DNA of 64,000 bases from Nitrospinales bacterium (GTDB taxonomy: Bacteria; Nitrospinota; Nitrospinia; Nitrospinales; VA-1). The notes beneath the pieces are model-generated. The model was not told the origin of the DNA. It ran no database searches and saw only the letters and a list, made by a program, of their open reading frames with translations. Location of the stretch: contig OZ252246.1 in NCBI GenBank assembly GCA_965249625.1, positions 2,258,236 through 2,322,235 of the forward strand, given 5' to 3'. This document shows positions 2,144 to 13,117 of this stretch, one piece after another. How positions within the stretch are numbered: the stretch's first letter is position 1; each line of letters begins with the position of its first letter. Made by a program: the position numbers and the translations under genes.

Positions 2144-2614
2144 TCAAACAGTCTCGTTGATATTTTTATAATAAGATGCAATTTCTCGAAAGCTAAGTTC
2201 CCCGCTATCGTCCTGATCTATTTCGGCAAAGTTTTCCAACAGCTTTGCGCCACGCCCCGTTCTGTCTATCAAGGCCTGTAATTCATCGGTGTCCACCCCT
2301 CCACTGTCGTTCTGGTCGACCTTGTTGAACAATCGATGCGCCGAATGATCCTGGTTATGCAATGCTTTAAGTTCCCTGAAACTGATTTCCCCACTTCCAT
2401 CCTTATCCACTCTGTCAAAGTTTTCCAATAACTTTGTGCCTCGCCCTGTTTTGTCGATCAAGGCTTGGATTTCATCAGGGTCCAATCCCCCACTGTCGTT
2501 CTGATCAATTCGATTGAACAACACATGTGCCGGTTTGTGATTCTCTCTGTCAAGTGAGATGTCTCGAGTTTGCGCAAAGCTCTGTGGATTAAAACCACCA
2601 AGGCCTTCAATCAT
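2144..2614 (-). CDS. EF-hand calcium-binding protein (4 EF-hand loops, internal duplication)
   Basis: Four DxDxSG loops (DQNDSGGLDPDE, DKDGSGEISFRE, DQNDSGGVDTDE, DQDDSGELSFRE); ATG at 2614 has a GGAGG 5 nt upstream, preferred over the GTG at 2653. Confidence 0.8.
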   Translation of the reverse strand: MIEGLGGFNPQSFAQTRDISLDRENHKPAHVLFNRIDQNDSGGLDPDEIQALIDKTGRGTKLLENFDRVDKDGSGEISFRELKALHNQDHSAHRLFNKVDQNDSGGVDTDELQALIDRTGRGAKLLENFAEIDQDDSGELSFREIASYYKNINETV

Positions 2615-3291
2615 TTTAACCTCCTGTCTTAAGTTGGGATTCGGGTCCCCCACTGCCCCATAAATCCTTAATTATTAACAGTGGTCTGATCGGCAGGTTA
2701 AGCAGAAAAATAATGGGGGCTTGGCTGAAAGGAATATTGGGAAATGGCTGAATTTCCGCCTCCCCCGGTGCCCCAAAAAAATCCAGCCAGGGAAAAATTT
2801 TCACCCCTCCTTTACCCATAACGGCCCATGCTTTACCCATTATGGCCCACCAAAAATTAATCTCCCCACGACAGCACGCGAGGCACCCGCGAAAAACATT
2901 GATTTTTAAAGACTAATCAGGGCATTGCCCAGATCGATTTTTTTGGCATTCATATTGCTCTAAATATCCGTATTCCCGCCACAGGGCGCGGGTTTCAAGG
3001 TGGGAGCTCAGCCGAATTCCTAGGTGGATTTCAGCAGAACTCCTGTTTGTTTGAAGTGGGCCGCATATATTCAAAAATCTTTTGTTTTCAGGTCAACCTT
3101 TTTGTCTCTGCTGCGTTTTAAATAGTGAAAGGAGGAATTTGTTTTGAATTCTTTTAACAACAATGCAAACGAATCTGACACCTCCACTGGAAACACTGGT
3201 GATATTCCAATCGAGGAAAAGAAAGATTCGACCAAAAACAATAGCGAGTTGATGGCAGAGTTTTTTGGAATCACTCCAGGTGGAGACGAGG

Positions 3292-4002
3292 ATGACAGTG
3301 AAGAATCTTAACCAGATGGTGACGAAAATAAATTTAGTGCTACCCAAAACCATAAAAATTATTATTGCGGATAACCGCACCATTATCAGAAGTTGCATTT
3401 CTCATTTATTGAAAAACGGTGGCATGAACATCGAGGTCGCAGGGGAAACCTCGGATGGCTGGCAATTACTCAAACTGGTTGCCACTACTGAATGCGACCT
3501 GGTTCTGATAGATCCCATGATGCCCGGCCCCAGCACGCTCGACATTATTAAAAATATGAAAATTGAGTTTAAAAATGTTTCCGTATTGGTTTCAACCAGC
3601 TATTCGGAGATGGATTTTATCATTCGATGTTTTAAGGCAGGCGCAAAAGGCTATTTTTTAAATACCGGTTCGATTGAACATTTGATAGATGTCATTAAAA
3701 GAATTTACCGGGGCGAAACAGTCATCCCTCCTGATGTATCAAAAAGAATGGCCATGACCAACCTGGGCCATAAACCTCAAATGCAATTGGCCCACGAGAT
3801 CTTATCCGACCGCGAACTCGAAGTCATGTGCCTGATGGCATCGGGAAAAGGTCTGACCGACGTAGCTCAAGTTCTGAGCTTAAGCCCTAAAACAATCAGC
3901 ACTCACAGGAACAACGTCATGAAAAAAATGGGCTGGCAGAACAACGCAGAAATGATGTTCTATGCGATTCGAAAAGGCCTGATAAAAGAAGAACTGCTGT
4001 AA
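3292..4002 (+). CDS. NarL/FixJ (LuxR-type) response regulator
   Basis: Receiver domain (KIIIADN, LVLIDPMMPG, KAGAKGY) plus C-terminal LuxR HTH (LSDRELEVMCLMASGKGLTDVAQVLSLSPKTISTHRNNVMKKMG); start uncertain (TTG 3265 or ATG 3292). Confidence 0.85.
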   Translation: MTVKNLNQMVTKINLVLPKTIKIIIADNRTIIRSCISHLLKNGGMNIEVAGETSDGWQLLKLVATTECDLVLIDPMMPGPSTLDIIKNMKIEFKNVSVLVSTSYSEMDFIIRCFKAGAKGYFLNTGSIEHLIDVIKRIYRGETVIPPDVSKRMAMTNLGHKPQMQLAHEILSDRELEVMCLMASGKGLTDVAQVLSLSPKTISTHRNNVMKKMGWQNNAEMMFYAIRKGLIKEELL

Positions 4003-4216
4003 CACCCCACCTGAAATCTCCACCAATTCTGCATCGACCAATAGCGGCGAGCCGCCCACTCGGCGTGGGGCCGATGAAAATGATGTGCGGAAATTAACCT
4101 TAAAAGCCCCTCTTTCAAAAGAAAAATTCGGAAAAACCTTGCTTTTTCTTAATCGGAATCTTATTTACACTCCAAGGCCAACTTCTATAAAATCCTAAAC
4201 GAGCAGCAATCTAAAA

Positions 4217-4417
4217 ATGAAAAAAGACACAAATTCAAGCGTTTCACCAACCGTCTCACAAGTAATTGACCAGTTCATTACGGCCATGCGCGCAGATGAT
4301 GGAATTGAAAACGGCTCTATTGACAGACTTGAGGAAATTTTGCGAAAAAATACCGTCCCTAAACCTGATGAAATTAGCACAGCGTTATTCGATCCCTCAA
4401 CCGGGAGTGAGGCATGA
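4217..4417 (+). CDS. Small acidic hypothetical protein (66 aa), translationally coupled to the downstream ATPase
   Basis: ORF stop overlaps the ATPase start in ATGA (4414-4417); no recognisable domain and no clear SD, so coding status is tentative. Confidence 0.4.
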   Translation: MKKDTNSSVSPTVSQVIDQFITAMRADDGIENGSIDRLEEILRKNTVPKPDEISTALFDPSTGSEA

Positions 4418-6885
4418 TCCGCGTCAAGGCCATCCATATAGAGGAGTTTCGCGGCATCCGCAGCCTTGACCTAGAACTGGGTGCCAAAAATTTTGGAATC
4501 TGTGGCCCCAATGGAACTGGAAAGAGCGGAGTTGTAGATGCCATAGAATTCTGCATCACAGGCGATGTAACTCGCTTGTCGGGAGAGGGAAGCTTAGGCC
4601 TCAGCGTTAAAGCCCACGCTCCGCATGTTGACCAGAGCAGCCATCCCGAACTATCGAGTGTCACGATTACAGCAGACATTCCTTCACTTGGAAAATTGGT
4701 AAAGATTCATCGATCAGTGAAGAACCCCCGGAAGTTTGAAGTCACTCCCAATGATGCAGACGTTAAGGCCATTATTGAAGAACTGCAAACGCATCCTGAG
4801 TTTGCACTGTCTCGCCGCGAAATCATCAAGTACATCATCACCCCTCCCGGCAAACGATCCGAGGAAGTTCAAACCCTCCTGCGCCTCGAACATATCGAGA
4901 AGCTGCGAAAATCACTAACTACCTTTTGCAATAACCAGAAAGGTGAAGCAGAGGAAGCTGACCGTGCGTTCTCAATGGCCGAAGCAGAATTAAAAAATGC
5001 ATTCCAAATCGACGAGCTTACAGACACCATACTTCTAAAAAAGGTTAATGAAAAACGTGAGATTTTAGGCCTACAAACTCTTTCAGAGTTGTGCAAGGAC
5101 ACTTCATTTAAAACTGGAGTAACTGAATCTCAGGGGGTACCGAAAAAACCAATATTAAAAAAGGTCGAGGCTCTTGCCGACCTTTCAGCTTTACATTCAG
5201 CGATTAATAAAGAAGAACCTTCTGACCTTGTTAAGAACCGACAATTTGCTAAAACTGCCTTGGAAAAACTAAAGAGCGATGAAAAAGCTTTAATGCTGGC
5301 TCGGCAGCAGGGATTCATAAAAATGGGTCTTGATCTCATAACAGAAAACAATTGCCCTCTTTGCGATAGCGAATGGGATGCAGATAAGCTGCGTGAGCAT
5401 TTGCGGGAGAAGCTGCTTAGTGCAAAGGAAATCGAGGAACTTATGAGGCAACTTCAAGACAATATTAATGGCCTCCTTCAACCATTGTCCGAACGCATAC
5501 AAGCAGTTGAGCGAGCGATAAAGTACAGCCAAAGCCTTCAACCCCCTATTGATAAAACCGAACTTTCAAATTATCTCAATGCACTCAAAAAGTTGGAAAC
5601 AGAGCTCACCAACTTTTTGAAAGACCGGATACAGATCAAAACTGCCATTGAAGCTGTCTCAAATTCGTGGTGGTTGCCAAAGACTGAACAAAATAGCCAA
5701 ATTGAGGAATGCCTAAAGGCCGTTAAAGCTTTGCCAGATACGTCAGCCGAGGACAAAGCTCAAGATATTCTAATCGTCGCGCAGGAGCGCTACGAAAAGC
5801 TTTTAAGCAACAAAACAACTGCAGATAAAAAGAAAGACTGCAGGCTGATAGCACAAAATGTACTTGATCACTACAATAAAAGTCGCACCAGTGTATTAGA
5901 AGGTATCTACGATAAAGTAACCACAGATTTTATAAACTACTATCGCGTCATCAACAGCGATGACGAACAAAAGTTTATTGGCAAGCTCACGTCAGAACCT
6001 GCGAAACTGAGTTTTGATGTGGATTTTTATGGTCGTGGCCTCTTTCCACCAGGTGCGTATCATAGTGAAGGCCATCAAGACGGCATGGGCCTTTGCCTCT
6101 ATTTGGCACTAATGAAACATACCCTTGGAAATAATTTCACATTTGCAGTTCTCGATGATGTACTTATGTCGATCGACACTGGTCACCGCCGAGATGTCTG
6201 CCGCCTATTGAAATCAGAATTTCCAAATACACAATTCATTCTCACGACTCACGACCGTGTTTGGCTCCAGTATATGAAAACTGAGGGCCTCATTAACCAG
6301 AGCAAATCATTTGGTGGATGGACAGTCGATACAGGCCCAAGAGTTTGGGATGATAAAGATATTTGGACAGAGATTCAAAGCGAGCTCGGCAAGAATGATG
6401 TTGCCAAGGCAGCCTGGTTATTACGACGTTACCTTGAATTCTCAGCTAACATCCTTGCTGATAATCTTCGAGCCAAAATAGAGTTCAGAGGCGATGGCAA
6501 TTACGACCTTGGAGACCTATTACCAAACGTTCTTAAGGAATGGCAGGCGTGGCTTTTGAAAGGGGAAAAATCTGCCGAATATTGGGATCGAAAAGAGGAA
6601 AAGGAATTAATTGCCAAGAAGCGTGCCACAACAAAGGAATTAATTGCAAAAGCAAGTGTAGAACAATGGGCCATTAACCCGTCTGTTCATTTCAATGAAT
6701 GGGCGAATCTCCAGTGCCATGAGATGCAGGAGGTTGTTGACGCATTCAGGAACCTACTTGAGCAAATGCGCTGCCAGAACTCGAACTGTAAATCGCACCT
6801 TCACATTTTGCCACGCAAAAACGATGCCGAATTAATGTGCTGCAATTGTGGTGAAACCAGTATCAATTTAAAAACAAGTAAATAA
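4414..6885 (+). CDS. Rad50/SMC-like ABC ATPase with coiled-coil CxxC zinc hook and C-terminal zinc ribbon (RloC/PrrC-like)
   Basis: Walker A GPNGTGKSG; long helical insert with CPLC (nt 5353-5364); signature-like HSEGHQDG; Walker B FAVLDDVLMSID; H-loop ILTTHD; C-terminal LRRYLE ... NPSVHFNEW and CQNSNC...CCNCG; GAGG SD before the ATG. Confidence 0.8.
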   Translation: MIRVKAIHIEEFRGIRSLDLELGAKNFGICGPNGTGKSGVVDAIEFCITGDVTRLSGEGSLGLSVKAHAPHVDQSSHPELSSVTITADIPSLGKLVKIHRSVKNPRKFEVTPNDADVKAIIEELQTHPEFALSRREIIKYIITPPGKRSEEVQTLLRLEHIEKLRKSLTTFCNNQKGEAEEADRAFSMAEAELKNAFQIDELTDTILLKKVNEKREILGLQTLSELCKDTSFKTGVTESQGVPKKPILKKVEALADLSALHSAINKEEPSDLVKNRQFAKTALEKLKSDEKALMLARQQGFIKMGLDLITENNCPLCDSEWDADKLREHLREKLLSAKEIEELMRQLQDNINGLLQPLSERIQAVERAIKYSQSLQPPIDKTELSNYLNALKKLETELTNFLKDRIQIKTAIEAVSNSWWLPKTEQNSQIEECLKAVKALPDTSAEDKAQDILIVAQERYEKLLSNKTTADKKKDCRLIAQNVLDHYNKSRTSVLEGIYDKVTTDFINYYRVINSDDEQKFIGKLTSEPAKLSFDVDFYGRGLFPPGAYHSEGHQDGMGLCLYLALMKHTLGNNFTFAVLDDVLMSIDTGHRRDVCRLLKSEFPNTQFILTTHDRVWLQYMKTEGLINQSKSFGGWTVDTGPRVWDDKDIWTEIQSELGKNDVAKAAWLLRRYLEFSANILADNLRAKIEFRGDGNYDLGDLLPNVLKEWQAWLLKGEKSAEYWDRKEEKELIAKKRATTKELIAKASVEQWAINPSVHFNEWANLQCHEMQEVVDAFRNLLEQMRCQNSNCKSHLHILPRKNDAELMCCNCGETSINLKTSK

Positions 6886-6950
6886 CTTGAATAGAAATAA
6901 AAAATTTATGGCTAGTCGGCCCCACGCCTAGTGGGCGGCCACGTGGCCGC

Positions 6951-8762
6951 TCAGACCATGCCGATGGCGGTGTGTTGCATTTGTTGGCGTTGTTCTTCGG
7001 TGACTTCGAGTTGCGGTAGGTGGTTGGACCCATATTTGTCGATGTAGAGGAAGATGTATTCGCGGACACAGGTTCTCAGGTCCCATTTTGTGTTGTGGTT
7101 GCGCTCGAACTCATCAAACACATTCAGCGCATCTTGAATGCTGAGTCCACCTTTGGTGGTGAAGTAGTAGTCGAGGGCCAGATCCCATTCCGGATTTTTG
7201 TAAAAGGTGATGCCGTATTTTTCCGGCTCAAACGCAACGGGACTGTACTTGCCTAAAACGAAGGTCATGAATCCGAGTGAGTGGATGTGGGCCGAGTTTT
7301 TCTCGACGAAGGCTTTACTGTCATCGGCTTCTTCCGAGGTTTCACCGGGGAAACCGAAGAACCCCATCAGGTGATTCCAGATGCCTGCTTCGGATGACAT
7401 GCGGAGATTAGTTTCGATGGCGTCCAGATTGGTGGCTTTATCCATGAGCTTTAAAACCCGCTGGTTGCCGGACTCGTAACCGAAGTGCAGATATTTGCAA
7501 CCCGATTCGGCAACATCTTTCCAGACTTGTTCATCCAATAGGGATTCTTCAAACCGCATATGCGTGGTCCAGGCGATATCGAGTTTATCGTCGATCAAGC
7601 GGCGCGAAAGTTTCTGGAACAGTGCCGGGGGATAGGACTCATCGGTGAAATGGAAAAACCGGGTGCCGTATTTTTCTTTGAGGTGCTTGATTTCATCGGT
7701 GATCTGGTCGACCTGCTTGGTGCGGAACCCTTCGACGTAACCTTGAAAATGGTCGCAGAAAGTGCAACGCCCCCAATAACACCCCCTTGTCGCGAGGTAG
7801 GGCAGGATGAGATGCGGCACGAAATACTTTCCCAGCGGTAAACCATCAAAGTCCGGTGGCGGCAACTCGGCCAAATTTTCGGCACAGACTTCTTTGTTCG
7901 TGTGAATGCCACTATCGTCTTTGTAGATCAGGTTGGGGAGTTGGGAAAAATCGCCGCCCTCTTTCACCGTTTCGGTCAGTTTCAGATAGGCTGACTCGCC
8001 TTCATAAACCACCGCCGTGTCGAACCATTCCCATAGCCCTTGCATTTCCGGCAGGGTGTCGCGGATGCGGGTGATGATGTTTCCACCCAGGGTGATATGC
8101 GTTCCGGGAAACTCTTCCTTAATCATTTTGCAGAAGGTGAAGGTGGCGATAAGTTGTTTCTGTTGCACCACAGAAATGCCGACCATTGCCGGACGCTCGC
8201 GTTCCATCACCGGACGGATCAGCATGCGATAAACATCGCGGTAAATATTGATCTGGTCGTCATCGACCGCTTCCAGAATTTCTGAGGACATGAACGGTTT
8301 GTAAACGATGTCGGTCTCAATGGGTGGAAAACAGATTTGCGCCGGATAATAGCCAAGCGAAACCGCTGCCATAACCTGATGCAGGCAATTCGTCGCCCAC
8401 TCCAACTGGTCGATATCGTAAAACGCCTTGCCGCGCAGGATGCCCTTGGCCCTTTCGACATCCGTGGAAAATTGTTGAAACAGTTCCGGGGTGCAGGTGA
8501 TGAGCTTTTGCATCAACTCCTGCTCTTCCTCATCGAGGTTGCCTTCTTTTTCCTTGTCCTGGAGACAGCTGAGTTCGCTGGCAATGCGTTGCGCGACATG
8601 TTCCAAAAACCGGGAACTGAAAAACAGGTCATACATCTCGACGTTGACATCCAGCTGCGAAACGTCGTGACCTGCCGGGCGCAGAACTGAAGCCAGTGAC
8701 GGCAGGCTCAGGTAGGGCTCGGAAGGTAACCAGTCAGGGGGGAATATGAGTAATGTTTTCAT
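6951..8762 (-). CDS. B12-binding domain-containing radical SAM protein (paralog 1)
   Basis: N-terminal B12-binding-like MKTLLIFPPDWLPSEPYLSLPSL; cluster motif RGCYWGRCTFC; 603 aa; paralogous to the neighbouring gene. Confidence 0.85.
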   Translation of the reverse strand: MKTLLIFPPDWLPSEPYLSLPSLASVLRPAGHDVSQLDVNVEMYDLFFSSRFLEHVAQRIASELSCLQDKEKEGNLDEEEQELMQKLITCTPELFQQFSTDVERAKGILRGKAFYDIDQLEWATNCLHQVMAAVSLGYYPAQICFPPIETDIVYKPFMSSEILEAVDDDQINIYRDVYRMLIRPVMERERPAMVGISVVQQKQLIATFTFCKMIKEEFPGTHITLGGNIITRIRDTLPEMQGLWEWFDTAVVYEGESAYLKLTETVKEGGDFSQLPNLIYKDDSGIHTNKEVCAENLAELPPPDFDGLPLGKYFVPHLILPYLATRGCYWGRCTFCDHFQGYVEGFRTKQVDQITDEIKHLKEKYGTRFFHFTDESYPPALFQKLSRRLIDDKLDIAWTTHMRFEESLLDEQVWKDVAESGCKYLHFGYESGNQRVLKLMDKATNLDAIETNLRMSSEAGIWNHLMGFFGFPGETSEEADDSKAFVEKNSAHIHSLGFMTFVLGKYSPVAFEPEKYGITFYKNPEWDLALDYYFTTKGGLSIQDALNVFDEFERNHNTKWDLRTCVREYIFLYIDKYGSNHLPQLEVTEEQRQQMQHTAIGMV

Positions 8763-8870: not shown

Positions 8871-10673
8871 TTAGGCCCGGCAAAGGATCTTCTCCTCTTC
8901 TTCCGCCGGCGGTTGTTTACCACTCAGCGACTCTTTGCCAAACTTATCGAGATACAGCAGAAAATGTTCGCGTGGCAACGTTCCCCACAATTGCAGGGAC
9001 TTGAACAACTCTTCCGCCATGCTGATGCATTCGCTGTTCATTTCCACGGCCTCATCGCGGGACATCCCCTTTTTAGCAACAAAATCCAGGTTCATGGCAA
9101 TGTTTCTATCCGGGTCTTCGATAATTCGTTCGATGGAAAACTTTTCCGGATACTGGTAGCAACTTGAATCCCGGTTCAGCAGGAACACTCCGGGGCCGAA
9201 TGAATGGATGGAATCAATGTTGTCGCGCAGAAAGTCGATGGTCTCCTGAGCCTCGGGCCGGGTTTCGGTGGGGAACCCGAAAAACAGGAACGAATGGTTC
9301 CAGATACCCGCCTTATGGCTCTTCATCAAAACGTCTCGTTCCACTTCCTTCGTCGTTCCTTTATCGATGAGTGCCAGCACCCGGTCGTTGGCACTTTCCA
9401 ATCCGAACATCAGGAAAACGAATCCGGCCTTTTTCATTTTCGCGAACAACTGATCGTCCATGACCTTTTCAAACTTCAGCAATGCCAGGGAGCGGATTTC
9501 CACCCCGCGTTCGATCATCAATTCCGAAACATCGTTGAGGGCGTGCGGCGAAACCGCTTCATCGGAAAAAGTGAAATACTTCGTGTTGTATTTTTTCATC
9601 AGTGCTTCCAGTTCATCGACCATGGCATGGGTTTTCTGTTTGCCGTAGCGGTGTCCATAAACAAAACTATGCGTGCAGAAGGTGCACTTGCCCCAGTAAC
9701 AACCCCGGCTCTGTAAAACGGGGATGATCGGGTATGGCGACAAATAGCTATGCATCGGCAGGCCGTCGAAGGTCGGACCGGGAATATCTTCAAACCTCAG
9801 TTCCACACGTTCCTTGTTCTGCACCACTTCCCGTCCATCCAGATGAATCAGGTTGGGCACGGTCGATAACGCATCCCCGGCCTTGAGCGCGGTGAGCAAT
9901 CTATGCAGGGGTTCTTCGCCTTCGAAGGTCACGATACTATGGCAAAAATCATCAAAAAATTCCGGATGACCGATCAACTGCCCGGCGTTGACGCTGAATA
10001 TCGGACCACCTAGAGTGATATGTAGATGCGGAAATTTTTCCTTGAGTAACCTGGCTAAAGTTAGCCCGGGAATGATCTGCGAGATGCCGACAATAGAGAT
10101 GCCGACCACGTCATAGTCTGACCAGTTTTCACCGGGAATCAAAATGCTCTCATATAAATGAATGAAGGGATTAGTCTCTTTGTCGCGGCTGGCTTCATGC
10201 GCTCTCTGGGTGGACTCTTCAGCGCGAGTACCGCTTTCAAAAGTCGACAGACTGAAAACCGCCGGAGCGTGCGCGTCGGAAACCAGTTTTAGAGCGGACT
10301 TGATCACCATATCCGCCTGCTGATACGAGGGAAAATCGAAAAACTGTTCTGGAGTTCTGAGAACCGACTTTGCCTCCTTGATGCCGGCAATGATGCGGTC
10401 GGAAAATTTTAACCCCATCGCCAAAACATCCAGATGAGATTTTTCCTTGATCGACAGAGAACTCTGACTTTTGAGCGATTCCAAACGCTGAGCCATCAGG
10501 TTTTCAGCATTTTGCAAAAGGGGTGCCGACAAAAAATGCTCGTAGGACGCTATATTAAAATCTCTTTGTTCCACCTCCCAACCTTTGGCGCGTAAATAGG
10601 CCGTCAGATAGGGCGTGCTCAAATACGGCTGCGTGGGGTACCACTGTGCCGGAAAAATCAACAAGGTTTTCAT
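8871..10673 (-). CDS. B12-binding domain-containing radical SAM protein (paralog 2)
   Basis: MKTLLIFPAQWYPTQPYLSTPYL; RGCYWGKCTFC; 600 aa; same architecture as 6951..8762. Confidence 0.85.
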   Translation of the reverse strand: MKTLLIFPAQWYPTQPYLSTPYLTAYLRAKGWEVEQRDFNIASYEHFLSAPLLQNAENLMAQRLESLKSQSSLSIKEKSHLDVLAMGLKFSDRIIAGIKEAKSVLRTPEQFFDFPSYQQADMVIKSALKLVSDAHAPAVFSLSTFESGTRAEESTQRAHEASRDKETNPFIHLYESILIPGENWSDYDVVGISIVGISQIIPGLTLARLLKEKFPHLHITLGGPIFSVNAGQLIGHPEFFDDFCHSIVTFEGEEPLHRLLTALKAGDALSTVPNLIHLDGREVVQNKERVELRFEDIPGPTFDGLPMHSYLSPYPIIPVLQSRGCYWGKCTFCTHSFVYGHRYGKQKTHAMVDELEALMKKYNTKYFTFSDEAVSPHALNDVSELMIERGVEIRSLALLKFEKVMDDQLFAKMKKAGFVFLMFGLESANDRVLALIDKGTTKEVERDVLMKSHKAGIWNHSFLFFGFPTETRPEAQETIDFLRDNIDSIHSFGPGVFLLNRDSSCYQYPEKFSIERIIEDPDRNIAMNLDFVAKKGMSRDEAVEMNSECISMAEELFKSLQLWGTLPREHFLLYLDKFGKESLSGKQPPAEEEEKILCRA

Positions 10674-10948
10674 GATGGGTTAATGATAGCATTTTTACGA
10701 TCTCAAGCCCAACGAGATAATATTTGACATCAATTTCCTGCAAAGTATAATTGCCTGCTTATACGATACATAAAGCTTTCTGCCCCGCCGACACAGTGAT
10801 CCGGCAGGGTGAAGCCATCCTGAAACCGGGTTTTCCCCCATAGCAAAAAGGGCATTAATTCCAATTCCTCTCATATTATTTTTTGCGGATTATTTGGGGC
10901 GAAAATGGGATTTTCCTGGCGTTTTCCGTCCATAAATGAGGTTTGAAC

Positions 10949-13117
10949 ATGAAAAATCTTAAAGTTTTGATCGCTCTGAATATTTTGTTATGGGTGGCAC
11001 TGTCTGCCATCCCTGTGTTGGCAAAAACGGTCAAAGCCACTGAAACCGAAATTTCACTGGTCGATGGAATCGCCGTCGATAAAAAAGGCAATATTTTTAT
11101 TGCCATGCGCGATAACAACATCATCAACCGTGTAGACACCCAAGGGAACATGACCCCCTTTGCCGGTACCGGCGAGTCCGGGTTTGACGGGGACGGCGGA
11201 AAGGCCACCGACGCAAAGCTGAAAATACCCGCTGGCTTGACCTTCGATAAAAAAGGCAACCTCTACATAGCCGACCGAGACAACCACCGCATTCGAAAAG
11301 TGGACACACGCGGCACCATCACCACGGTCGCGGGTAATGGCACAGCAGGGTTCAGCGGAGATGGCGGAAAAGCCACTGATGCCATGCTCAATCTGCCTTC
11401 TGGAATCGTCATCGATGATAACGGGAATATTTATATTTCCGACCGCTCCAACGACCGGGTCCGCGTTGTCAACAGCAAAGGAATCATCACCACGATCGCA
11501 GGAAATGGCATGGACGGATATAACGGTGATTCAGGCCCAGCCACCCAGGCGCAACTGTCAAGACCGTTCGGGCTGGCCCTGGACAAAAAAGGCAATCTCT
11601 ATATCGCGGATCGCGGAAACAATCGGGTCCGAAAAGTCAATCCTCAGGGAATCATCACAACTGTCGCCGGCGACGGCAGTTTTTTCTACATGGGGGATAA
11701 CGGCCCCGCCTATCGCGCCAGCATCGCAGGACCCACCGGCGTGGTGGTGGATGATAATGGCATCCTCTACATCGCCGACCGAAATAATAACCGGGTCCGC
11801 GCGGTCGACACCCAGGGAATGATCCGAACCGTGGCAGGAACCGGGCAACAGGATTACAACGGTGATTCTGAAGTGGCCCGCGATACCAATTTGTACCTGC
11901 CTTTCGGGGTTGCTCTCGATCAGGATAACAAACTGCTCATTATTGACCGGTCGCATTATCGCATTCGTCGGGTAGACCCTCGTCGCGGCACTGTCATAAC
12001 TGTTGCCGGGAATGGGGCCAAGATGTTTGCCGGAGATGGCGGCCCGGCTACCGGAGCAAATTTGAGTTTTCCCCACGGCATCATTGTAGATAAAAATGAC
12101 AACCTGCTTATTTCCGATAAAGGGAACTACCGCATTCGCCGGGTTTCACCGGACGGAATCGTCCAGACCATCGCCGGGAACGGGATACGGGGAAACATCG
12201 GTGACGGACTGCCAGCCCTGGAAGCTTCCATCTATGGGGCGACATCCCTGAAGCTGAACAATAAGGGAGAAATGTTCATCGTCAGCCCCAGCGGGTTTAC
12301 CAGCATTATTCGTAAAATAGATGAAAAGAATATCATGCGCAAAGTTTTGGGAACGGTAGATAAGGACTATCTAGAATCCATTGCCAAGAGCAAATACAAA
12401 GGCAGGGTCCAAACCGGGGAACTGGCGGTCATCACCACTTTTTCAGATATTGCCTTTGACCATAAAGGCAATATGTTTATTTCTGATCGACTCAACCACC
12501 AAATCCGAAAAGTGTCTGCCCAAGGCGAAATTGCCACCATCGCCGGTACCGGAGAGTCGGCCTATTATGGCGATGGCGGCCCGGCGAGTGAAGCCGCGTT
12601 CCGCGACCCCAGCGCTTTGGCCACCGACAAGGAGGGCAATCTATACATCGCCGATGGTGCCAATAACATGATCCGAAAGATAGACACCAAAGGCATTGTC
12701 AGCACCATAGCTGGCAACGGCAATCACGAAAACTCGGGAGATGGCGGCCCGGCATTAAAAGCGGGAATTCGCAATATGGACTACCTGGCTATGAGTCCGG
12801 CTGGCGAACTGCATATTGTCGGCATGAACTCCAGTACCGTAAGAAAAATCACCAAGGACGGGAAAATCGTGACGGTTGCGGGCGGGGGCTATCAAGGCTA
12901 TTTTGGCGACGGCGGCCCGGCCACCAAAGCCATGCTCAAAAGTCCTTCGGCAATCGCTTTCGATTCAAAAGGTAATTTATATATTTCTGATATGGGAAAC
13001 GACCGCATTCGTAAAGTGGACACTAACGGAACCATCTCCACTTTTGCAGGAACAGGAACCTTCGGCTGGGCTCAGGATGGAGAAACAGTAGAAATTTATC
13101 TACAAAACTTCCCCTAA
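10949..13117 (+). CDS. Secreted NHL-repeat (beta-propeller) protein
   Basis: Signal peptide; more than 10 repeats of the form GNLYIADRxNHRIRKVDxxGxIxTVAGxG...GDGGPA; ATG at 10949 with a GAGG upstream. Confidence 0.85.
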   Translation: MKNLKVLIALNILLWVALSAIPVLAKTVKATETEISLVDGIAVDKKGNIFIAMRDNNIINRVDTQGNMTPFAGTGESGFDGDGGKATDAKLKIPAGLTFDKKGNLYIADRDNHRIRKVDTRGTITTVAGNGTAGFSGDGGKATDAMLNLPSGIVIDDNGNIYISDRSNDRVRVVNSKGIITTIAGNGMDGYNGDSGPATQAQLSRPFGLALDKKGNLYIADRGNNRVRKVNPQGIITTVAGDGSFFYMGDNGPAYRASIAGPTGVVVDDNGILYIADRNNNRVRAVDTQGMIRTVAGTGQQDYNGDSEVARDTNLYLPFGVALDQDNKLLIIDRSHYRIRRVDPRRGTVITVAGNGAKMFAGDGGPATGANLSFPHGIIVDKNDNLLISDKGNYRIRRVSPDGIVQTIAGNGIRGNIGDGLPALEASIYGATSLKLNNKGEMFIVSPSGFTSIIRKIDEKNIMRKVLGTVDKDYLESIAKSKYKGRVQTGELAVITTFSDIAFDHKGNMFISDRLNHQIRKVSAQGEIATIAGTGESAYYGDGGPASEAAFRDPSALATDKEGNLYIADGANNMIRKIDTKGIVSTIAGNGNHENSGDGGPALKAGIRNMDYLAMSPAGELHIVGMNSSTVRKITKDGKIVTVAGGGYQGYFGDGGPATKAMLKSPSAIAFDSKGNLYISDMGNDRIRKVDTNGTISTFAGTGTFGWAQDGETVEIYLQNFP

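Follow-up and report, generated by a model that had tools for sequence, protein, structure and literature searches.

A two-gene cassette at positions 4217–6885 of the window (the whole 64,000-nucleotide stretch analysed) is a horizontally transferred, mobile and self-contained module, and the pair probably represents an anti-phage system not described before, which resembles RloC and Lamassu in build and is a member of neither. The first gene (4217–4417; + strand, as are all features below unless noted) encodes a small acidic partner protein of 66 aa. The product of the second (4414–6885), 823 aa long, is an SMC/Rad50-like ABC ATPase to which a further C-terminal domain is fused, as judged from Pfam, PADLOC, PDB and Foldseek comparisons. 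The best explanation, to which we assign a probability of about 0.5, is a conflict module of the zinc-hook SMC class directed against phages or other mobile genetic elements and acting by the mechanism proposed below. The first-pass annotation had offered an RloC-like or 'otherwise novel single-ATPase abortive-infection system', and it is the second description that best fits the evidence, with abortive infection as the putative outcome. No experiments on any family member were found in the literature searched.

The two reading frames meet at GGCATGATCC, where the ATG of one and the TGA of the other share the sequence ATGA, and the coupling of an acidic 66-aa ORF to the large gene (4217–4417 overlapping 4414–6885) is as originally described. 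A putative promoter-like site, TTTACA-18-TAAAAT (4164–4193), lies 24 nt 5′ of the small ORF and was recognised by consensus match only, with 10 of 12 consensus positions matched. From 4122 onward, including this site, about 86% nucleotide identity is kept with a related locus, L086. The cassette had also been described as more AT-rich than its radical-SAM neighbours. This is true, with a GC content of 0.439 for the cassette as compared with 0.470 for the window and 0.513 and 0.499 for the two radical-SAM genes, but the difference is modest, and the response-regulator gene upstream of the cassette is equally low (0.428).

Within the window the cassette is a 2.9-kb insertion, and close relatives have an empty site; presence or absence of the pair varies at this hotspot among them. 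The insertion is bounded by two REP-like palindromes that lie outside the system, at 4051–4074 on the left and at 6916–6939 (− strand) on the right. These form a 24-nt inverted repeat that is 96% complementary and are the sole two copies in the window. The same REP-like element is found at several intergenic sites of related contigs and is absent beside the cassette in L086, an 88%-identical relative.

More than 90 independent loci, in which ATPase identity falls as low as 41%, carry the two genes in the same arrangement, which is thus more than chance. The pair is carried by 360 of 185,579 GTDB species (0.2%), distributed sporadically over many phyla, including Nitrospirota, Firmicutes, Chloroflexota, Proteobacteria, Acidobacteriota, Bacteroidota and CPR, and is also present in a Euryarchaeota MAG. 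There are 23 full-length copies on plasmids, and the family is essentially absent from the phage genomes searched. No third gene is conserved within 6 kb on either side in 80 loci, the largest cluster of neighbours being present in eight. The pair behaves as a mobile accessory module. Several copies lie in defence islands, and some are placed inside type I restriction-modification (R-M) loci in the manner of rlo and prrC genes. In L093/L094 and L096 the pair is within type I R-M loci along with AbiEi/Eii, Fic, HEPN_AbiU2 and DarT-Macro, and in L001 it directly follows hsdS-hsdM-hsdS-hsdR-YgjP on an element with Tra genes. Elsewhere it adjoins integrases (L089, L095), type III R-M genes (L045/L046) or TPR-PIN (L006). 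Conserved placement beside housekeeping genes had been named in the first-pass annotation as counting against its proposal, and many copies do lie among ordinary metabolic or housekeeping genes (for example L002 and L090).

The 823-aa protein is a zinc-hook ABC ATPase of the SMC/Rad50 type, as had been proposed, with an ABC head, an antiparallel coiled coil with an apical CxxC and an extra C-terminal domain evident from Pfam, the AF2 model and the family alignment. Pfam matches it to SMC_N (1.6e-16; 60.9 bits against a cut-off of 40, across aa 4–622) and AAA_23 (4.8e-12), showing that a split ABC head is present, and PDB sequence searches return the heads of Rad50, SMC and PtuA. Using the full model, Foldseek matches the Smc head 5xei (2.5e-8) and the LmuB chain 9hqx_B (1.9e-7), as well as Rad50. 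All of the motifs listed earlier for this protein are located where they had been placed, and those of the ABC head are conserved. In the Walker A motif or P-loop, GPNGTGKSG (aa 31–39; 4504–4530), residues G31, N33 and G34–G39 are kept in at least 97% of 80 family members. The signature-like motif HSEGHQDG (aa 550–557; 6061–6084) aligns with the signature region of Rad50 and SMC heads in the PDB sequence search, and the block P545–D556 is kept entire in at least 97% of members. It is followed by VLDDVLMSID (aa 579–588; 6148–6177), which contains a variant Walker B, VLDD (D581–D582), and a D-loop, SID, with L580, D581, D582, V583, S586 and D588 near-invariant. An hhhhDD Walker B is the reported consensus of 'long Lamassu' LmuB, whereas the short LmuB has D[Q/S/T/E] (PMC12663957); variant Walker B motifs in LmuB have been linked to slow hydrolysis. 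The H-loop is TTHD (aa 611–614; 6244–6255), and T611, T612, H613 and D614 are near-invariant among the 80 members.

Between the lobes of the head, the AF2 model has an ascending coiled-coil arm (aa 147–307; 4852–5334; helices 147–197, 204–217, 250–265, 270–288 and 290–307) and a descending arm (aa 323–513; 5380–5952; helices 323–374, 382–404, 408–416, 424–438 and 444–513). Together these give about 365 aa, rather than the helical insert of about 500 aa estimated at first. The ascending arm is the least conserved region, with a mean column identity of 0.46 in the family alignment. The zinc hook CPLC (aa 314–317; 5353–5364) is at the apex, in the loop joining helices 290–307 and 323–374, and its C314, P315 and C317 are kept in at least 97% of the 80 members. 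The Pfam Rad50_zn_hook profile stays below threshold with both the window protein (E 0.021) and the relative P0088 (0.0095). Other members of the zinc-hook ('CxxC') SMC class are Rad50/SbcC, LmuB of Lamassu, RloC and DndD.

The C-terminal domain comprises about 195 aa, and is modelled by AF2 as a helical bundle followed by a four-Cys zinc ribbon. The H-loop is followed by 209 aa, somewhat fewer than the roughly 230 first given. AF2 predicts aa 625–823 with a pLDDT of 88.4 and a pTM of 0.83, as two short strands and then helices; the β-hairpin and bundle (aa 628–785; 6295–6768) match no family. Among polar residues, R671, E675, N755 and H759 alone are invariant, and they make up two pairs, each i/i+4 on a helix. 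R671 and E675, one turn apart on the same helix, form the R-x3-E of LRRYLE (aa 670–675; 6421–6438) and are invariant in 78–80 members spanning 41–100% ATPase identity. The N-x3-H is part of NPSVHFNEW (aa 755–763; 6676–6702), which begins a short helix; N755, H759 and W763 are kept in at least 97% of members and N761 in 85–97%. A distance of about 95 aa between the two motifs had been quoted, and this becomes 88 residues from R671 to H759, with 83 between E675 and H759. Six tryptophans are also invariant (W636, W645, W651, W724, W752 and W763). The zinc ribbon (6769–6882) had been written as CQNSNC-x17-CCNCG, and both motifs are present (aa 787–792 and 809–813), but C809 is not conserved; the family cysteines are C787, C792, C810 and C812, kept in at least 97% of members, and AF2 predicts three short strands for the ribbon.

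This domain is almost confined to the ~820-aa architecture (638 clusters at 50% identity), and comparison with Pfam, PADLOC, PHROGs, PDB and BFVD revealed nothing related to it. The C-terminal domains of 78 members matched no Pfam or PADLOC family, and Foldseek of the C-terminal model found no significant fold (best E 0.48 in PDB and 0.30 in BFVD), the closest hint in the PDB being 2q00 at a probability of 0.30. For the ribbon there were weak, sub-threshold zinc-ribbon or IBR-like matches only. HEPN families are absent among the Pfam matches, and hhalign against two HEPN proteins gave a probability below 1%. Classical HEPN domains have a contiguous R-x4-6-H and a four-helix up-down core, whereas the domain described here is a helical bundle with N-x3-H and without R-x4-6-H; the residue before N755 is I, V or M and not R, and the invariant Arg is on another helix. 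Judging from its conserved residues (R-x3-E ... N-x3-H), the domain may act as a nuclease. Since it has no similarity to any nuclease fold, an outcome that the first-pass annotation had itself set against its proposal, 'RloC-like nuclease' is an analogy and not a finding.

The small protein has a pI of 4.4, with 12 D+E and 7 K+R. Its homologues lie directly upstream of the ATPase gene in essentially all of the ~90 loci examined, usually with the same 4-nt ATGA overlap, so that the suspected conserved, translationally coupled partnership is upheld; they are 62–70 aa long with a median pI of 4.6. This conserved pairing of a small and a large gene with an ATGA overlap resembles a type II toxin-antitoxin layout. 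The family shares the pattern V..(V/I)F..F..L / RL...L / ALF and has no conserved polar residues. A profile of the small protein collected 203 database proteins, each of them short and the majority without a name or annotated as 'hypothetical'; a spurious JGI 'TctC' label is borne by four. No match was found in the Pfam, PADLOC or PHROGs families.

From this architecture we infer a mechanism that would involve dimerisation, DNA sensing, nuclease activity, control by the small protein and abortive infection. The 823-aa protein would dimerise via its CPxC zinc hook, and the paired ABC heads with ~20-nm coiled coils would sense DNA that is aberrant or foreign, for example its ends or intermediates of replication. 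With DD in place of DE in its Walker B, the ATPase may be slow and switch-like. ATP- and DNA-dependent head engagement could then be relayed to the fused helical-bundle/zinc-ribbon domain as the output, most likely a nucleic-acid-cleaving effector, in which R-x3-E and N-x3-H may make up an RNase-like site that needs no metal, while the substrate may be held by the zinc ribbon. The co-translated 66-aa acidic helical protein would be a stoichiometric regulatory subunit, acting either as an inhibitor or antitoxin-like lock or as an adaptor with an LmuC-like role, such that the effector would stay silent until the sensor fires. In its most specific form, that of a new defence family in which a Rad50-like zinc-hook DNA sensor gates a fused R/E/N/H effector of new fold, locked by the 66-aa protein, as a third solution beside RloC and Lamassu, the proposal is tentative.

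Lamassu, RloC and eukaryotic Rad50 are the examples so far of what is emerging as a general class of foreign-DNA sensors, the zinc-hook SMC proteins, and this family would add a compact two-gene version that spans many bacterial phyla, candidate-phyla-radiation lineages, archaea and plasmids. Since nothing related to the output domain is known, it could reveal a nuclease or effector fold not seen before, and since a single chain holds both sensor and output, with just one tiny regulator, the pair may be a tractable model of how head engagement leads to effector activation. Neither gene has a name in Pfam, NCBIfam or PADLOC, and defence annotation consequently misses several hundred to a few thousand loci.

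Two other explanations concern the role of the system. In one, the C-terminal domain is a non-enzymatic DNA- or protein-binding module, with the system clamping or occluding foreign DNA or recruiting a host nuclease, and the small protein serving as a loader or adaptor. Consistent with this, Foldseek detects no catalytic fold in PDB or BFVD, nucleic acids are commonly bound by zinc ribbons and by helical bundles rich in Trp, of which six are invariant here, and SMC-family proteins are able to act by topology alone (PMC10586767). However, four polar residues that are invariant over 41–100% identity and arranged as two i/i+4 pairs are more typical of an active site than of a binding surface, and in each of the SMC-like defence systems reviewed (Wadjet, Lamassu, RloC, Septu and retron I-A) a dedicated effector is either carried or recruited; we regard a purely binding role as unlikely. 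The other, that the pair is not a defence system but either an accessory factor with which mobile elements repair or maintain DNA, in the way of SbcC or RecN, or simply a toxin-antitoxin addiction module, is highly improbable. An Mre11/SbcD-like partner is absent, only 0.2% of species carry the pair, copies are repeatedly found within type I R-M loci with Abi and TA defence genes around them, and presence varies at a hotspot among close relatives, albeit that the ATPase head is nearest Rad50 by sequence, that plasmids and an element with Tra genes carry members of the family, that many contexts are outside defence, and that antitoxin-toxin pairs classically have this layout, in which a small acidic gene lies upstream and overlaps the next by 4 nt.

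The remaining two would place the pair within a described family. There is little chance that the protein is a true, divergent member of RloC/PrrC, its C-terminal domain being a PrrC-type tRNA anticodon nuclease that has gained a helical hairpin and a zinc ribbon. The two share an overall plan and are close in size (706–804 aa in RloC and 823 aa here), the R-x3-E at aa 671–675 compares with R692/E696 of Geobacillus RloC, the later invariant His has a Ser or Ala two residues earlier, and linkage to type I or III R-M loci is seen for a minority of copies, as it is for 8 of 72 RloC. The PrrC/RloC triad is R-x3-E-x36-52-H (PMC2610378), and judging from the AF2 model, removal of the hairpin at about aa 699–747 would bring the spacing into this range. 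Against this, Pfam AAA_13, the family of RloC and PrrC, gives no match to the window protein at E≤1, and in six relatives it scores 24–31 bits, under the 36-bit cut-off, matching the coiled coil or ATPase C-lobe only and never reaching profile positions 580–713. The PADLOC PrrC model covers only aa 560–621 in the ATPase C-lobe (E 0.025), with nothing beyond PrrC position 221, and none of the 78 C-terminal domains match a PADLOC or Pfam family. The RloC/PrrC homology suggested at first is thus not sustained, whereas it was correctly remarked that RloC is not characterised by a small partner, a zinc ribbon or so long an R/E-to-H spacing (83 rather than 36–52). It is also very unlikely that the pair is a reduced Lamassu, with the ATPase as LmuB and the C-terminal domain and small protein replacing LmuA and LmuC. 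The top match in the defence library is indeed the PADLOC LmuB model PDLC03859 (82.8 bits, 7.9e-24, aa 2–623 against profile positions 3–594 of 611), Foldseek matches the LmuB chains 9hqu_A, 9ux7_A and 9uxh_F in addition to 9hqx_B, the protein has a zinc hook and short coiled coils, its variant Walker B is of the long-LmuB type, and LmuC loss is reported for some Lamassu clades. However, a score of 83 bits over 620 residues is as expected from a shared SMC head, no LmuA-like gene was found among the neighbours of 80 loci within 6 kb on either side, nor is any third gene conserved there, the small protein matches no PADLOC model, and the C-terminal model matches no LmuA or LmuC chain, even though Lamassu complexes are in the PDB searched.

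Compared with Rad50-Mre11 and SbcCD, the pair has an ATPase head closest to that of Rad50 and zinc-hook dimerisation is expected, but it lacks an Mre11/SbcD nuclease partner, has a much shorter coiled coil and an extra C-terminal domain, and is distributed sporadically as a mobile unit, not as core genes. ABC head lobes are likewise common to PtuA of Septu and retron I-A, AriA of PARIS and MAD3 of MADS, and PADLOC matches the large protein to PtuA (4.6e-14), mad3 (1.2e-17) and AriA (2.3e-6); these proteins are without a long zinc-hook coiled coil, and are paired with HNH or TOPRIM nucleases that are absent beside the window ATPase. In Lamassu (LmuA-LmuB-LmuC; ABC-3C / DdmABC), LmuB resembles the ATPase in profile and fold and shares its zinc hook and short (~20 nm) coiled coil, and the long LmuB has the same hhhhDD Walker B, but here both an LmuA effector gene and LmuC are missing, the ATPase carries the output as a fusion at its C-terminus, and the 66-aa partner is unlike LmuC. 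RloC differs in that homology of the C-terminal domain is undetected by Pfam AAA_13 and PADLOC, in its shorter E-to-H spacing (36–52, against 83 from E675 to H759), and in having neither the four-Cys zinc ribbon, nor the obligatory acidic partner, nor the DD Walker B. What RloC and the window ATPase share is a single chain of ~800 aa with an ABC head, a CxxC zinc-hook insert and an all-helical C-terminal output domain, a conserved R-x3-E ... H residue set, and lateral transfer with occasional embedding in type I or III R-M loci.

The cassette consists of a small acidic ORF (4217–4417, forward strand, 66 aa) and a large ATPase ORF (4414–6885, forward strand, 823 aa) that are joined through an ATGA overlap, exactly as described in the first-pass annotation, and all nine of the motifs quoted there lie at the positions given for them, such as CPLC at nt 5353–5364. 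The AT-richness reported for the cassette is borne out to a modest degree, with a GC content of 0.439 relative to 0.470 for the window and 0.50–0.51 for the adjacent radical-SAM genes. Upstream of the cassette, the gene for a LuxR-type response regulator (3265–4002) has an equally low GC content of 0.43; it is variably present among relatives and thus may also be accessory.

The N-terminal 625 residues of the large protein are an SMC/Rad50-type ABC ATPase. Pfam searches match SMC_N (1.6e-16, aa 4–622) as well as AAA_23, and the top PADLOC model is Lamassu LmuB (7.9e-24, profile positions 3–594 of 611), followed by MAD3, PtuA, GajA and AriA, which align mainly or solely to the head lobes; sequence searches of the PDB return the heads of Rad50, SMC and PtuA. 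An AF2 model of the full-length protein (pLDDT 72.9) has a split head and two long helical arms (residues 147–307 and 323–513), with C314-P-L-C317 in the loop that joins them. The predicted helical insert is therefore about 365 aa, shorter than the roughly 500 aa initially claimed. Foldseek matches the full model to the head and coiled coil of Smc (5xei, 2.5e-8) and to LmuB (9hqx_B, 1.9e-7), and also to Rad50 and cohesin. Ranked third in this search is 9a6c_A, an integrative model of Bacillus subtilis YydD-YydB; YydD may be a further coiled-coil ABC ATPase that has received little study and merits comparison.

Alignment of 80 family members spanning 41–100% identity shows that the P-loop, signature block, Walker B, D-loop, H-loop and hook C-P-x-C are conserved in at least 97% of them, and that the coiled coil is the most variable region. 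The Walker B motif has the form hhhhDD and is invariant; this is the consensus of the 'long Lamassu' LmuB proteins according to Haudiquet et al. (PMC12663957), and slow ATP turnover is associated with a variant Walker B in LmuB (PMC12663957; bioRxiv 2025.03.14.643221).

The C-terminal domain was modelled separately using 63 diverse database fragments gathered by profile search, giving a confident prediction (pLDDT 88.4, pTM 0.83) of a beta-hairpin, five or six bundled helices, and a zinc ribbon with three strands and four cysteines. In this ribbon, which was noted from the sequence, the cysteines conserved across the 80 members are C787, C792, C810 and C812. Together with these four cysteines and six tryptophans, the sole invariant polar residues of the domain are R671 and E675 (in LRRYLE) and N755 and H759 (in NPSVH), the members of each pair being separated by one helical turn. 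R671 and H759 are 88 residues apart, and not about 95 as first estimated.

Foldseek searches with the C-terminal model gave no significant neighbour, the best being generic helical bundles with E-values of 0.48 (PDB) and 0.30 (BFVD), and neither single sequences nor profiles of the domain matched any PDB entry by sequence. There were no Pfam or PADLOC family matches among 78 C-terminal domains, and no PHROGs family match for the window's own domain; when both proteins, the 78 C-terminal domains and 48 small proteins were searched against Pfam, NCBIfam, PADLOC and PHROGs, the ATPase part alone was matched. A relationship to HEPN was considered, and hhalign comparison with two HEPN proteins from one of the comparison loci (L093) returned nothing. 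Searched exhaustively with HMMER, a set of 1.84 billion cluster representatives yielded 638 proteins at E≤1e-3; of the 150 matches listed, all of the full-length proteins have the ~820-aa architecture and the shorter ones resemble fragments.

A homologue of the small ORF accompanies the ATPase gene in essentially all of the loci inspected, which comprise 80 in GTDB genomes, about 15 on metagenome contigs and one on an IMG/VR contig. It is 62–70 aa long and lies directly upstream of the ATPase gene, almost always with the same 4-nt overlap. The small proteins are acidic (median pI 4.6) and have in common a pattern of hydrophobic residues as expected for two or three helices, with a conserved A-L-F at the end; they have no family in Pfam, PADLOC or PHROGs. 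A profile built from them retrieves 203 short database proteins that are mostly unnamed or 'hypothetical', and the three chosen for examination on long contigs each precede an 818-aa ATPase homologue. Four 64-aa homologues (P0398, P0413, P0468 and P0505) are labelled 'tripartite-type tricarboxylate transporter receptor subunit TctC' by JGI, evidently a spurious annotation for small acidic proteins of this length. Across the 80 loci, the 6 kb on either side of the pair hold no conserved third gene, and the largest cluster of neighbours is present in 8 of them.

With the adjacent radical-SAM protein as query, we retrieved about 30 close relatives (85–97% identity) and compared the insertion site; they share the syntenic block NHL-rSAM2-rSAM1-[variable]-mnmE-yidC. 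Apart from the window, just one of these relatives has the cassette (L086 and L159 are a single contig). The site is empty in L104/L167 and L109/L110, four contigs that make up two near-identical pairs, and there the stop codons of the response-regulator gene and rSAM1 are 70–100 bp apart versus 2.95 kb in the window; the remaining relatives have different cargo, or none. In this marine lineage the stretch separating the radical-SAM gene from mnmE (window 2654–6950, compared with L097–L127) is a hotspot for cargo: in close relatives it is empty, or holds a LuxR-type response regulator (alone or together with an EF-hand protein), a 221–306-aa membrane protein, a radical-SAM-like protein of 597 aa, or the ATPase cassette. 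Nearby, going by labels read from the sequences, two paralogous radical-SAM-type proteins of ~600 aa that are 33% identical (6951–8762 and 8871–10673, reverse strand) lie next to an NHL-repeat-like protein of 724 aa whose N-terminus is signal-like (10943–13117, forward strand); the three form a conserved block in all relatives. A 169-aa EF-hand-like protein (2144–2653, reverse strand), in which DQNDSGG.D.DE.QALIDKTGRG.KLLENF occurs twice as an internal duplication, is found in some relatives only (L109 and L110).

A 24-nt inverted repeat flanks the cassette (4051–4074 and 6916–6939). We rejected these as its terminal inverted repeats, because they are missing from other cassette loci and the sequence recurs at other intergenic sites of the lineage; the repeat is a lineage-wide REP-like palindrome and is not cassette-specific. 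The palindrome (GGCCCCACGCCTAGTGGGCGGC and variants) is intergenic, lineage-specific and repeated in relatives of the window's organism, with copies in L102 (1999, 8812, 10242 and 14181), L104 (4832), L105 (1883 and 11613) and L167 (2539). Inverted copies lie on both sides of the variable segment that separates rSAM1 from mnmE, in the window as in L102.

Relatives of the cassette are present in 360 of 185,579 GTDB species representatives, from Nitrospirota, Firmicutes, Desulfobacterota, Chloroflexota, Alpha-, Beta- and Gammaproteobacteria, Acidobacteriota, Bacteroidota, Verrucomicrobiota, Deinococcota and several CPR lineages. A protein from a Euryarchaeota MAG is 67% identical to the window ATPase, and sequence identities of 65–75% across phyla indicate horizontal transfer. 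PLSDB plasmids carry 23 full-length copies, annotated just as 'AAA family ATPase | hypothetical protein'. Phage genomes are essentially without the family, with no matches in INPHARED and one in IMG/VR, at the edge of a predicted provirus.

Several copies lie unmistakably within defence islands. The gene order at L093/L094 is hsdR-AbiEii-AbiEi-Fic-pair-HEPN_AbiU2-HEPN-Macro-DarT-hsdS, at L096 it is hsdR-AbiEii-AbiEi-pair-x-hsdS-x-hsdM, and at L001 the pair follows hsdS-hsdM-hsdS-hsdR-YgjP with AbiEi and Tra genes nearby. The pair adjoins integrases at L095 and L089, is in a prophage-like region at L091, and accompanies type III R-M at L045/L046. A BLAST screen found type I R-M genes no more than 10 kb from the pair at L001, L049, L054, L056, L075, L093/94 and L096; other copies (L002 and L090) are amid ordinary genes. 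The defence association is clear in these examples, which come from the sampled loci. L093 and L096 (1–12195 in each) are type I R-M loci invaded by several defence modules together (AbiEi/AbiEii, Fic, the ATPase pair, HEPN_AbiU2, HEPN and DarT-Macro), so that these two R-M operons are compact defence islands. In a Nitrospirota MAG (L006, 1896–5783), a 1296-aa TPR protein lies just upstream of the cassette; its PIN domain is of the type of a predicted TPR-GreAB-C-PIN conflict system.

The observation holds and is well delimited: the cassette is a widespread and uncharacterised two-gene module, probably of the SMC-like defence class, whose output domain has no recognised fold. The analysis establishes the components, their conservation, mobility and genomic settings; the mechanism is proposed by analogy. 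A hook-linked ATPase dimer would sense DNA ends or other aberrant DNA, followed by slow, switch-like and ATP-dependent engagement of the heads that would switch on the fused C-terminal effector. This effector is probably a nuclease that is independent of metal and acts through R671, E675, N755 and H759, the zinc ribbon gripping nucleic acid for it, and the small acidic protein may serve as a lock or an adaptor in a stoichiometric role. The chief rival reading is of a C-terminal domain that binds instead of cutting.

[quoted passage not shown] Eight of 72 RloC genes are linked to R-M loci (PMC2610378), a proportion similar to that among the sampled loci of the cassette family. Membership of the RloC/PrrC family nevertheless fails: the AAA_13 and PrrC profiles score below threshold and never align to the C-terminal domain, the R/E-to-H spacing is 83 residues rather than 36–52, and the zinc ribbon and small partner are foreign to RloC. 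By profile, the ATPase comes closest to LmuB. The defining component of Lamassu is LmuA, which LmuC usually accompanies; neither was found at the cassette loci. The family is therefore best regarded as a distinct branch of the CxxC-SMC sensors, with an output and a regulator of its own. Haudiquet et al. describe 1,320 families of LmuB homologues, including SbcC, RloC and DndD (PMC12663957), and the cassette family is probably among the unnamed ones.
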